Shown in pieces: positions 13,375 to 19,395 of a stretch of 64,000 nt of DNA; position 1 is the first letter of the stretch, and every line of letters begins with the position of its first letter. Source of the stretch: Heptranchias perlo (Eukaryota); assembly GCF_035084215.1 (NCBI RefSeq), contig NC_090340.1:5828001-5892000 (forward strand), read 5' to 3'. A program made the translations under genes and the position numbers. Below the pieces are notes generated by a model that saw only the letters and a program-made list of their open reading frames with translations, was not told the DNA's origin and did not search any database.

Positions 13375-13760
13375 TTTGAAATGTATAAAATTCTTACAGA
13401 GCTTGATAGAGTATATGCTGAGACGCAGTCTCTCCTGGCTGGAGAGTCCAGAACTAGGGATCATAGTCTCAGGATAAGGGATCGGCCATTTAGGACTGAG
13501 ATGAGGAAAAATTTCTTCACTCAGAATGTTGTGAATCTTCAGAGCTCTCTACACCCAGAGTGCTGTGGATGCTGAGTTGTTGAGTATATTCAATATTGAG
13601 ATCTATAGATTTTTGGACACTAATGGAATCAAAGGATCTCGGAATAGGGCAAGAAAGTTGAGTTGAGGTCGAAGATCAGCCATGACCTTATTGAATGGCA
13701 GAGCAGTCTCGAGGGGCAGTATGGCCTAATGCTGCTCCTATTGTTTATGTCCTTATGTTT
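13375..13760 (+). mobile_element. CR1 3' end
   Basis: YKILTELDRV...SRTRDHSLRI...FFTQNVVNL followed by the CR1 3' UTR. Confidence 0.9.
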
Positions 13761-15344: not shown

Positions 15345-15423
15345 ATGATCGCTTCAATTCAACCAGTCAAGATGCTGAGAGCCGTGCTTCAGTGCATGAT
15401 CTTTCTGAAGATCAGCTGCACCG
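15345..15423 (+). CDS. VJ-C1 receptor exon 1: signal peptide
   Basis: AAAATG; reads MIASIQPVKMLRAVLQCMIFLKISCT, then a phase-1 donor ACCG|GTAAAT (alternative in-frame ATG at 15372). Confidence 0.8.
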
Positions 15424-15642
15424 GTAAATTTATTTTTCAGCGCTCTTTCCTAATTATAAACGCCCTTTCATCTCCTTAATTGATTAATATTATTTACGGC
15501 GCTCATTCTGCGCTTTTTTATTATCCGTTTATTGCCAGTGTTTCTTTGCATTTCATAATTTCCTTTATTTTATTGAGCTTCCTTATTTCAATTTCTGCTT
15601 CTGTTTTAATGTTGCGTTTAAACCTTTGTTCGACCGTTGTTG

Positions 15643-15948
15643 GTAATCCTTCGCCAACCGTGAAACAAGCTCCTGATTCCGCAGTGAGGAGCGGCGGCGC
15701 CGTTACTCTATATTGTATATATCCCATCTTCACCGACAAGAGACCAGTGAAAGTGCATTGGTGGAGAGACGGGGAGGATGGATTCTTGGAGGAAAGTGCA
15801 GACAGCAGAATCCGGTTTTATTTCCTAAACAACGGGGGAGCTGCTTTTAAGCTGGTATCTGTGAGAGCCGAGGACGCGGGGCTCTATTACTGCAGAGTGA
15901 TACACCTGACGGTTCTAAATGGAACCGGCACAAAGCTTGATGTTTACG
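15643..15948 (+). CDS. VJ-C1 receptor exon 2: germline-joined VJ-type Ig V domain (NKp30/NCR3-like)
   Basis: GNPSPTVKQAPDSAVRSGGAVTLYCIYPIFTDKRPVKVHWWRDG...EDAGLYYCRVIHLTVLNGTGTKLDVY: B-strand Cys, C-strand Trp, DxGxYYC and a J-like GxGTKLxV; donor TACG|GTGAGT. The acceptor at the expected position reads TG, not AG. Confidence 0.92.
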
Positions 15949-17687
15949 GTGAGTGTCATGGTGATGGGCAATCGGAATCCGCCAACTTCGGTTTGGCATA
16001 TGGTAAATAATTTCAAAGCTCTGCCGCCAATACACTGCAGAATGACAGTCGATTTAATAACGCCTGACTGAGAAGATATAGAAAGCGTAAGGTTCAGAAC
16101 GATCATTCGCTCGCTGTGGCTCATGGTTTAAACAGTCATTTTGAAATGCGATCTTTGTTACTCTATGGTTTCGAATGATATTTTTAATTTTCTACTCCTG
16201 CTGCATAAGATTTCGCCCTTTATTTGAGTAGTTCTCTCAACAATAAACGTGAATGTAAATTTCAAATTAATTTTTCCAACTTTTACTCAAACATAAAAGT
16301 TCTACAATTAATTCATTGGATAACTATATATTTACAAAATAACCGGTAAATTATCAGAGATCACATTTTGAATGTTGCCCTGCTAACTTAATTTATGTGG
16401 ATGAAAATAATTGATATTGAATCAGAAAGGGAATTGAAAGAACATAAAGAGAAAACAATTTCAGTAAGCGTTGTTAGTCTGGATAAATCAGATTTCCGAG
16501 TTTCTTTGCTTCGTTCAAACAAGACCAGCCTAGTGTTAATCACTCGTTTTGATCTCTCATTGTAGCCTATTTTTGAAAGATGCCGCTCATTAAAATGAGC
16601 TCCGTGCCCTTGTAACCTGTGTCACTTTACAGATCGGGGATGTCACTTGTGACATTTACTCGATATGGGTATCACTCTTTTTACATATTGCGAAATATGA
16701 GAGCACCTTGATCTTAGACTCGAAAACAGAATCACACAATTAATATGTAACGATTAATGTGAGCTTTCAAAATGTCGAAAATGTATTTCCATACAACTAA
16801 TTATTTAAAAATATGGTCACTGTTGCTGAACCGGCAAACGCGTGGCTGTTTTTCCCACAGAAAGTTCCGACAAACAGCAAGCAAATGTCTTACTAGTCAG
16901 ACTAGTTTCGTGGTCTGAGAGAGTCACGATCGGCTGCGAGCTTGCTCCTCAGAGTCGCATAGCGCGATACGATCTTTAATGGCGATCAGATGGGGAAGAG
17001 AGGTACAGAATATAACCACATTGGAAAGAGGGCATATGTTACAATGCAGCAATCCATCGGGTAATGCATCATTGTCATAGATTTTGTGTCTAATTTTTGG
17101 ATTGGACCTTATATCCACGTTTGGCCGCCGCAAGGCCAGAGGATTATTGAAACAGATGGGATTACATTTACTCAGACTTGTAGATTGGACTTTGATTTAA
17201 TTTACAATCCATTGATTTTACTTTGATGAGTGCGAGCTCGGCAGAGTTTATTACATCTGGGTTAGATAATTGTGCGTTGGTGCTTCACTACTGGTTCAAT
17301 GTTACGTTGTCGGAGAGACCTTTCCATGGATGAGGCGCTAAGGACCCCACAGCCCACAATCATCCTTTAAAAAAATCTTTTTGATGAGCCAAACATCTCA
17401 TTGTTGCTTTGGACGGCACAACAATGAAGTAATACATGCATTAAGTACTTCGGAAAGTTTGGACAAGATGGTAAGACGCTGTAAGAACGTAGTTATTCTA
17501 TTTCGCAGATGAAACTTATGATAGTTGGCCGATGGAGGGGCTAAGGTATCATTTCATTTGATTCAGCCTCTGTGATGCGATATGCTAAAGGCCCTACATA
17601 AATGTAATCTGTTGTCCTTAGAAGTTTAAAAAAAATCTAACATTTGGCTTAGGAAATATTTACTGGTTCCCTTTCTTATTACATGGA

Positions 17688-17875
17688 GTGGAGATGCCGG
17701 TGATGGACTGGGGCTGACAATTGTAAACAATTTTACAACACCAAGTTATAGTCCAGCAATTTTATTTTAAATTCACAAGCTTTCGTTCACCTGACGAAGG
17801 AGGAACCCTCCGAAAGCTTGTGAATTTAAAATAAAATTGCTGGACTATAACTTGGTGTTGTAAAATTGTTTACAA
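17688..17875 (+). mobile_element. Penelope-type non-autonomous palindromic insertion with 12-bp TSD
   Basis: TTATTACATGGA at 17676-17687 and 17876-17887; perfect 67-bp inverted repeat at 17719-17785 / 17811-17877. Confidence 0.85.
17786..17824 (+). ncRNA. Minimal type I hammerhead ribozyme motif
   Basis: UUCAC (stem I) - CUGACGA - A - GGAGG AAC CCUCC (stem II) - GAAA - GC - UU - GUGAA (stem I'). The conserved core is intact; stem III is vestigial and palindromic (AGCU). Confidence 0.75.
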
Positions 17876-17889
17876 TTATTACATGGAAT

Positions 17890-18885
17890 TACAAAGAATG
17901 TATAGCACCGAAACATGCCATATGGCCTATCGGGTCCATGCTGGTGTTTATGCTCCACACGAGCCTCCTCCCACCCTTCTTCATCTAATCTCTTCAACAT
18001 ATCCTTCAATTACTTTCTCTATCATGTGTTTATCTAGCTTACCCTTCAATGCATCTATGCCTCAGCTACACCTTGTGGTAGCGTTTTCCACATTTTAACC
18101 ACTCTCTAGGTAAAGAAATTTCTCCTGAATTCCCTGTTGGATTTATAAGTGACTATCTTATAATTATGGTCCCTAACCTGGCCTCCCCCGAAAGTAGAAA
18201 CCTTTTCTCTAGATCAACCTATCGCACCCTTTCATAATCTTAAAAACTTCTATCAGGTCACCCTTCAGTCTTCTCTGTTCTAGAGAAAAGAACCCCAGCC
18301 TGTTCAATCGTTCCTGATACGTATAACCTCTCTGTTCTGATATCACCCTAGTAAAGCTGTTTTGCACCTTCTCCAGTGACTCTACGCCCTTTTTTTATAA
18401 TATGAAGATCAGAAATGTTCACAGTACCCCAAGTGTGGTCCAACTAAGGTTCTATAAAAGTTTAACATAACTTCTTTACTTTTCAATTCTAACACTCCAG
18501 GAATGAACCCCAGTGCTTTGTTACACTTTTTATGGCTTTATTAACCGGCGTGGCTAGTTTTAGAGTTTGTTGTAACTGTACCCCCAGATCTCACTGCTCT
18601 GTTACCCCATACAGGCACTTATTTTCCAAGGACTAATCGGCCTCCTTATTCTTCCTACCAAAATCTACCACTTCACACTTATCTATATTGAAATTAATTT
18701 GCCAATTACATGTTCTGCAGTCTTTATTAATGTATTCCTGGATTTTGTTGCATTCATCCTCAGAAATAACTATGCCCCCAATCTGGTGTCATCCGCCAAT
18801 TTTGAAATTGTACTTCCGATTCCGGAGTCCAAATCGTTTATGTAAATAGTGAACAATAATGGTCCCAACCTCGATTTTTCTGGAA
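17890..18885 (-). mobile_element. CR1 LINE, 5'-truncated (intron 2)
   Basis: Reverse complement shows TCAAAATTGGCGGATGACACC (SK.ADDT) and the CR1 3' UTR. Confidence 0.9.
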
Positions 18886-19089
18886 CACGCGCTAATTTGT
18901 ATTGTTCACTGACACTCATAAAATACAGCGAATACGCTTTTAAAACATGTTGAGCTGGTTATAATGTACGGCTGGGGGTCCATTGTGGTTTCATTAAGTC
19001 CTTTATCGGACTTGCAGCGGTGGAATTTGCTTCAGATTCGCGAAATCAATTCACGATGTAAAATCAAATGTTTGCTTCATTTTTTTCAG

Positions 19090-19395
19090 AGCCCCCGACA
19101 CCTCTTTGGATGGCCGCCAGGCGGATTGAAATTGGTTCAGCGCTTCCTCTGACTCTCGTGTGTAAAACAGCCGCGTTTTCCCCGGAGGATCTGAACATCA
19201 CTTGGTACAAAAATGGATCAGAATTTGTAACCGGAATTGAGCATTTCAAACGGCGCAACCCAGCGGGTCTATATGAGGTTACCAGCTACCTGAATGAGAC
19301 AGAGCCCGTGGATAACGGGATGGTTTATACCTGTCAGGTGTCTCATGTTTCCCTCCAGATTCCAGCCAATATCAGCTACACTTTCCATAATTTGG
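19090..19395 (+). CDS. VJ-C1 receptor exon 3: Ig C1-set domain
   Basis: Acceptor TTTTTTTCAG|AG. Reads EPPTPLW...LTLVCKTAAFSPEDLNITWYKNG...GLYEVTSYL...VYTCQVSHVSLQIPANISYTFHNL (C1 signatures LxCxxxxFxP, WxxNG, YxCxVxHxSL); donor TTGG|GTAAGA; phase 1-1, 306 nt. Confidence 0.95.

Follow-up and report, generated by a model that had tools for sequence, protein, structure and literature searches.

A hammerhead-tipped hairpin in an intron of Heptranchias perlo is very probably a young insertion stub of a Penelope-like retrotransposon

An intron of an immunoglobulin-superfamily gene in Heptranchias perlo holds a perfect hairpin with a complete hammerhead ribozyme motif at its tip. Is this hairpin a mobile element in its own right, is it the remnant of something larger, and does it affect the gene in which it lies? 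We analyzed a 64,000-nt stretch of DNA, here called the window (GCF_035084215.1, contig NC_090340.1, positions 5,828,001-5,892,000, forward strand), and coordinates refer to the window unless they are numbered from the ATG of the element. A first-pass annotation, made from the sequence by itself, had proposed a very young, non-autonomous and possibly self-silencing Penelope derivative. We found that the insert is real, young and ordinary, and that it belongs to a type of inverted-pLTR stub that is already known.

The insert is 188 bp long and is bounded by an exact 12-bp target-site duplication (TSD). Its two arms (17719-17785 and 17811-17877) are 67 nt each, 100% complementary, and 25 nt apart. 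The right arm extends 2 nt inside the right TSD, and 65 bp fall entirely within the insert. These dimensions agree with the first-pass annotation and are supported both by the sequence and by a 200-nt gap in a paralogue of the gene (below). The RNA of the insert has a predicted folding energy of -115.5 kcal/mol (z -18.3), and none of 200 shuffled sequences folded equally well. The parts of the insert are:

17676..17687, no strand: left TSD, 12 bp; one copy only at the empty paralogous site
17688..17718, minus strand: 31-nt PLE 'tail' on the inverted copy, aligned to the intact unit L087; it stops 4 nt short of the element ATG
17719..17785, minus strand: left arm, an inverted pLTR piece (element -35 to -101), from alignment to the intact unit
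17783..17785, no strand: 3-nt microhomology at the head-to-head junction; the match to the family copy L003 begins at 17783
17786..17875, plus strand: direct, untailed pLTR piece (element -126 to -37) that makes the loop and the right arm; 1 mismatch to L003
17876..17887, no strand: right TSD, identical to the left; its initial 2 nt also fit the element

Numbered from the element ATG, the insert reads from -4 to -101 in inverted orientation and then from -126 to -37 in direct orientation. The 31 nt that precede the left arm (17688-17718) belong to the element as its tail and are not filler. The two pieces differ from the nearest long family copy, L003, at 1 and 2 sites, and the junction microhomology would be 5 nt if the template were a rarer upstream variant. 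An inverted 5'-truncated copy with a one-sided tail of 30-40 nt and a TSD is what we found, and two reports describe this layout (an inverted 5'-truncated pLTR with a one-sided 30-40-bp tail) for insertions of EN+ Penelope-like elements (PLEs) [PMC3846280, PMC8557442]. The insert very probably consists of two head-to-head pLTR pieces of an abundant, protein-coding Penelope-like retrotransposon, and likely arose in a single recent event. It is a dead end, with neither a TATA box nor any ORF start. There is no further piece of the parent family elsewhere in the 64-kb window. Another very high-copy repeat lies at 17933-18500, 45 nt from the insert; it is common to the paralogue and is therefore older than the insert.

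The parent family is present in full-length form. We counted 62,115 exact genomic matches to a 32-mer from the arm (control, 0), 28,222 to the hammerhead motif and 9,130 to a second variant. Among the first 100 anchors, L062, L071, L084 and L087 belong to intact 3,081-bp units that are joined head to tail and have a 902-aa ORF, and the hammerhead sits in the 372-nt spacer of these tandem units, as in a tandem pLTR. The single ORF codes for a reverse transcriptase (RT; RVT_1, E 2.5e-10; DKG and YIDD motifs). The arm aligns to these units, so that the Penelope origin first proposed from the sequence holds, and the suggested searches for copy number and for an autonomous PLE both succeeded. The ORF also has a CX4CXXC motif at residue 753, which fits the CX2-5CxxC linker that PMC8557442 gives as common to Neptune and Nematis. 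By motif and look-alike only, it has a putative C-terminal GIY-YIG endonuclease: there is a GIY-YIG-type motif (VYLIRC...WYIGET) at 791, and GIY-YIG occurs in 13-23% of the members of its Atlas neighbours (at 0.96). Pfam gave no GIY-YIG match in the ORF. In L037 and L085, the pLTR subtype found in the window is joined to stop-free ORF pieces with 97-99% identity to the intact protein (two other rows of this comparison were left out as they scored a neighbouring element).

Several loci of the family merit separate mention. The intact elements L084 and L087 are inserted into simple-repeat arrays, and in them neighbouring tandem units show 0 mismatches over 2,700 nt, which points to very recent activity. 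The loci L002/L009 (C1598) and L004/L010 (C5), on an unplaced contig and a chromosome, are near-identical and likely represent an assembly duplicate or a second haplotype. At 1647-2295 of L019 lies an array, set between pLTR pieces, of approximately 16 copies of a 41-42-nt unit that includes the hammerhead's 5' half; the array is retrozyme-like, yet each unit is without the cut site. In a search that left most subscription journals outside, we found no literature on Neptune-type Penelope elements in sharks or on Penelope hairpins with TSDs in cartilaginous fish.

We found that hairpins of this kind are numerous. A hammerhead core lying no more than 30 nt from an inverted arm has 6,771 matches in the genome, corresponding to approximately 5,700 loci (scaled from a count by eye of ~85 loci for each 100 rows) with many different apices. 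In samples taken from one contig's first 28 Mb, 100 anchors gave 19 head-to-head neighbour pairs within 300 bp (17 distinct, as three were tandem duplicates of one) and no tail-to-tail pair. Scaled up from the 4.9 Mb around these anchors, the estimate is approximately 11,800 hairpins genome-wide. We compared 60 distinct hairpins (from L031-L229, chosen partly by hammerhead patterns). One arm was tailed and the other untailed in 59/60, and a TSD of 12-13 bp was present in 51/60. The 3' ends of family copies are bimodal, at -39 to -35 (42/100) and at -4 to +10 (47/100); the remainder extend into the ORF (5/100) or are intermediate (6/100). The one-tailed inverted layout is thus the norm for the parent family. 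In L050, L077, L159 and L166 the loops have 40-90 nt of non-element DNA, which is flank-like in L050 and L077.

The inner arms were identical in 44 of the 60 hairpins and differed in 16. Since mismatch-free arms are the family norm, arm identity says little about age; the 65 identical arm pairs of this insert bound its divergence only below ~4.5%.

Might the hairpin itself be a non-autonomous, MITE- or retrozyme-like mini-element whose transcripts re-insert whole, with one arm as an off switch for the ribozyme? Similar hairpins number in the thousands, and one apex does recur in subfamily A (a 10-nt gap, in several listed pairs). However, that apex coincides with a 3-nt microhomology, and apices are otherwise very diverse, so that ends and apex are not shared among copies as they would be in such an element. 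The apex of the insert itself was seen in none of 53 matches (30 read as loci). Apex and TSD vary from copy to copy, all pairs of tailed and untailed arms and their TSDs fit de novo formation, some hairpins combine arms of two family variants, tandem units like those of retrozymes are absent, and the parent is a coding family. We consider a mini-element most improbable, and the first-pass proposal of an element that copies itself as a hairpin is not upheld.

The pairs of arms also bear on how a hairpin forms. A single cDNA might have folded back, primed itself and copied itself, rather than two nicks having primed two cDNAs. Fold-back has been put forward from junction palindromes (PMC3846280), and the identical arms, here and in most of the 60 hairpins, are what it would give. 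However, the inverted arm exceeds the supposed template strand by 31-33 nt at the 3' end. In addition, the arm differences fall on family-variable sites in approximately 7 of the 15 discordant loci listed, and these would need later gene conversion; in four loci (L132, L136, L170 and L172) the arms differ by C/G at N7. Such differences favour two separate syntheses, sometimes from two RNAs, over fold-back, which we regard as unlikely. Seven hairpins (L132, L136, L137, L143, L170, L172 and L067), mostly inside exact TSDs, have arms of different family variants, and these could possibly be two-RNA insertions.

We examined where copies end on their 5' side. The 5' ends of 43 of 93 distinct anchors lie between -141 and -120, a short way upstream of the hammerhead core (its C3 is at -121), and those of 27 lie beyond -200. 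There was no peak at the ribozyme cut site: 0/93 ended exactly there and 4/93 within -95 to -90. The sole clear near-cut case in the 93, L065 (G000:C1:2628670-2628785), is a perfect palindrome centred on the hammerhead AAGCTT, beside the cut site. We also took 229 hammerhead contexts: the end lay no more than 60 nt from C3 in 161 of them, and no more than 20 nt away in 140. The ribozyme lies at the tip of the hairpin because the 5' ends of copies cluster a little upstream of the ribozyme.

Arms with and without a tail share their end position: the median distance from C3 is -11 for both (n = 77 and 84, respectively; p 0.74). The end is therefore set by position on the template and not by length, and truncation limited by length is ruled out. 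In subfamily A, in which the TATA box lies 40 nt before C3, the ends peak at -10; in subfamily B, with the TATA box 46-47 nt before C3, they peak at -15 to -17. This shift of the mode with TATA spacing gave a Fisher p of 0.010 for all short copies and 0.015 for 32 solo copies; the bins were chosen once the data had been seen, and the samples cover the initial 28 Mb of a single contig. The ends thus cluster ~30 nt below the TATA box, which is the usual spacing for polymerase II. We infer that the cluster reflects run-off at the 5' end of the RNA. In Drosophila Penelope, the promoter is reported to be in the pLTR and is TATA-less there [PMC2377424]. In subfamily A, stalling of the RT at a stem-loop just upstream could instead set the 5' ends: the stem-loop is visible in the sequence directly upstream, and many subfamily A ends lie beyond -10.

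The hammerhead is complete in sequence, as first annotated, with the core and stems I and II as then written and a predicted cut after 17819, preceded by a CUU triplet:

17786..17824, plus strand: minimal type I hammerhead; core, extra nucleotide 9.1, and palindromic AAGCUU replacing stem III
17786-17790 / 17820-17824, plus strand: stem I, 5 bp
17799-17803 / 17807-17811, plus strand: stem II, 5 bp

The left arm contains just the 3' half of the motif, so the minus strand has no ribozyme. The Rfam scan suggested in the first-pass annotation did not recover the hammerhead: at E up to 10, none of 12 matches was a hammerhead, and those returned were sub-gathering models of miRNA-type hairpins and weak chance hits. 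The absence of stem III is a likely reason. On the minus strand, at 13542, a second string resembles a hammerhead but is without stem I or a cleavage context, and we took it as chance.

The motif is under selection in the parent family. In 72 copies selected without using the core, each of the 12 core positions had at most 1 variant. The 9 commonly varying sites of the 39 all lie outside the core (p ~0.02) and keep pairing except in loops; they are N7, loop II and mostly-paired stem positions, and the fifth pair of stem II occurs as G-C, G-U or A-U. AAGCUU was invariant (72/72), and as a palindrome that would permit dimers it forms a self-duplex of -6.5 kcal/mol. The flank downstream of the hammerhead is likewise conserved. 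Covariation, for which the first-pass annotation had also asked, was modest: in a sample whose selection fixed the core, 97% of cells were paired, 16 of 500 shuffles were as high, and only 1 of 10 pairs had changed on both sides.

Within the insert, the hammerhead is likely an inert, locked-out passenger. Alone, it is predicted to be within 0.9 kcal/mol of the best fold. Inside the insert, the hammerhead fold is 19.6 kcal/mol worse than the best and the probability of stem I is ~0, already so in growing transcripts when 17820 emerges (equilibrium calculations for RNA alone). These models agree with the earlier suggestion that the hairpin and ribozyme folds are mutually exclusive. We see no sign of design in this: the suggested self-silencing follows from the geometry of the inverted-pLTR layout, which is already known.

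The host gene is on the plus strand:

15372..15423, plus strand: predicted leader exon of a V-C1 immunoglobulin-superfamily gene (hydrophobic ATG-GT exon; the paralogue has the same start)
15637..15948, plus strand: V exon, with acceptor CG here and AG in the paralogue
19090..19395, plus strand: C1 exon of the V-C1 gene

Given the predicted leader exon, the insert is in intron 2 (15949-19089) in sense orientation, as first annotated, and is 1.2-1.7 kb from either exon. PDB matches were to generic V and C1 domains and did not give a name for the receptor, and we did not find a convincing transmembrane exon. The CG acceptor at 15635-15636 may mean that this gene copy is impaired, that it uses an in-frame AG at 15668-15669, or that the assembly is in error.

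We found that the insertion site is empty in the paralogue. Apart from this locus, only one place in the assembly matches the left flank at length, an inverted paralogue ~75 kb away (G000:C18:5764000-5783800, minus strand; L230 and L231). Intron 2 differs from it at 155 of 2,936 aligned bases (~95% identity), and the only large gap in the alignment is 200 nt (188 + 12), at 17676-17875. A gap of exactly this length indicates that the TSD is real and that the insertion postdates the gene duplication. Between the two paralogues the V domain (identical at 101/102 residues) is better conserved than its surroundings (C1 95%, intron 95%).

The insertion is probably heterozygous in the sequenced animal, judging from contig geometry. 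In DNA runs from one sample, the contig across the left junction is continuous over 17628-17708 at approximately half the depth of the flank (8.6 vs 15.8; 6 vs 16). A second contig chain fits the insert locus with 1 difference, compared with 5 for the contig of the paralogue, and stops 18 nt beyond the TSD, the length expected of an empty allele with 31-mers. An unassembled third paralogue is an alternative explanation for this chain, and the read joint of an empty allele was absent among the joints listed. Runs from two other organisms left the unique flank without coverage, and two runs guessed to be RNA gave 0 contigs on the left flank. The empty paralogous site and the likely heterozygosity both agree with the very young age first proposed.

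Could the insert affect its host, by cutting or altering the receptor pre-mRNA, or as an ADAR or Dicer substrate through which splicing is changed or the family silenced? It lies in sense orientation in an intron, a perfect duplex of 65-67 bp is predicted, and rotifer Penelope copies yield antisense small RNAs (PMC3846280). However, the cleavage site and stem I are buried in the predicted fold, and minimal hammerheads of the PLE type are inactive as monomers and weak as dimers [PMC4209133]. Cleavage of host pre-mRNA by the insert is therefore unlikely on these models. Moreover, the insert is more than a kilobase from the nearest exons, it is missing from the paralogue and likely from one haplotype, and this gene copy has the CG acceptor. 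The long dsRNA to which the first-pass annotation drew attention is indeed predicted, but it is no special feature, being one of thousands alike. With so many such hairpins genome-wide, we consider an effect on the host very unlikely.

The features observed (parent family, one-tailed inverted layout, TSD, empty paralogous site, two classes of 3' end and a 5'-end cluster) likely arose as follows. The element enzyme would cut both DNA strands, 12 nt apart, and each nick would prime one short cDNA on pLTR RNA. One cDNA would begin at element -37 and the other at about -4, and these two RT start sites would leave the 'tail'. Both would run toward the 5' end of the RNA, likely ~30 nt below the pLTR TATA box and 10-17 nt upstream of the core. 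The template would not have been cut by its own ribozyme, because the cDNA reads through the cut site. The cDNA ends would then be trimmed and joined at the 3-nt microhomology. According to PMC11167929, a purified PLE protein cleaves and extends both strands, two internal start sites bound the tail, the protein is a predicted dimer, and uncut RNA is used with no need for ribozyme cleavage; these in-vitro data are for a lizard Poseidon element, a different family.

A fuller reading, whose chances we judge to be about even, is that the stubs record PLE insertion as it happens in vivo. The enzyme, as a dimer, would prime both nicks of a 12-nt staggered cut, with one subunit per RT start site; on uncut RNA it would run off at the capped 5' end (TATA + 30, shifting with subfamily), sometimes using two RNAs; the family would still be inserting, and this copy would be polymorphic. 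If this is true, PLE insertion is open to testing on living material. The stubs bear on how Penelope-like elements insert and on what their hammerhead does, and their ends suggest that cDNA was primed from both nicks, on RNA left uncut and beginning a short way upstream of the ribozyme. The locus itself matters little, as one among thousands of dead-end stubs. As a clean stub, with an empty paralogue and likely heterozygosity, it is usable as a marker and as a case in which to test an intronic hairpin for allele-specific effects. New here are the empty paralogue, the likely heterozygosity, the shift of 5' ends with TATA spacing between subfamilies, and the arm pairs of mixed variants.

These findings can be set beside known systems. 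Insertions of the EN+ element Pen2a_Av of Adineta likewise have head-to-head inverted pLTRs, a one-sided 31-bp tail, a TSD and junction microhomology [PMC3846280, PMC8557442]. The present insert differs in having no ORF between the repeats, which makes it the shortest form, and in its TSD (12-13 bp here, 8-10 bp in Adineta). The hammerhead resembles those of metazoan PLEs in its core, the extra nucleotide between 9 and 10.1, G10.1-C11.1, the 5-bp stem I and the palindromic 15.2-16.2; it differs in its 5-bp stem II, its U at position 17 and the antisense arm that covers it [PMC4209133]. The same report describes pairs of motifs 100-700 bp apart on opposite strands. The Anolis element PAc (Poseidon) likewise has two RT start sites bounding the tail, cutting and extension of both strands, and an uncut RNA template; its start sites and cut site lie inside the ORF, whereas both precede the ATG in the present family [PMC11167929]. 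Unlike PAc, the present ORF has the CX2-5CxxC linker of Neptune and Nematis. Finally, non-LTR retrozymes are likewise short, non-coding and pLTR-related, with a type I hammerhead [bioRxiv 10.64898/2026.07.22.740005]. Retrozymes consist of direct repeats in tandem, each unit having its own ribozyme, an arrangement that the insert does not have; in contrast, it is a single inverted pair with one complete core.
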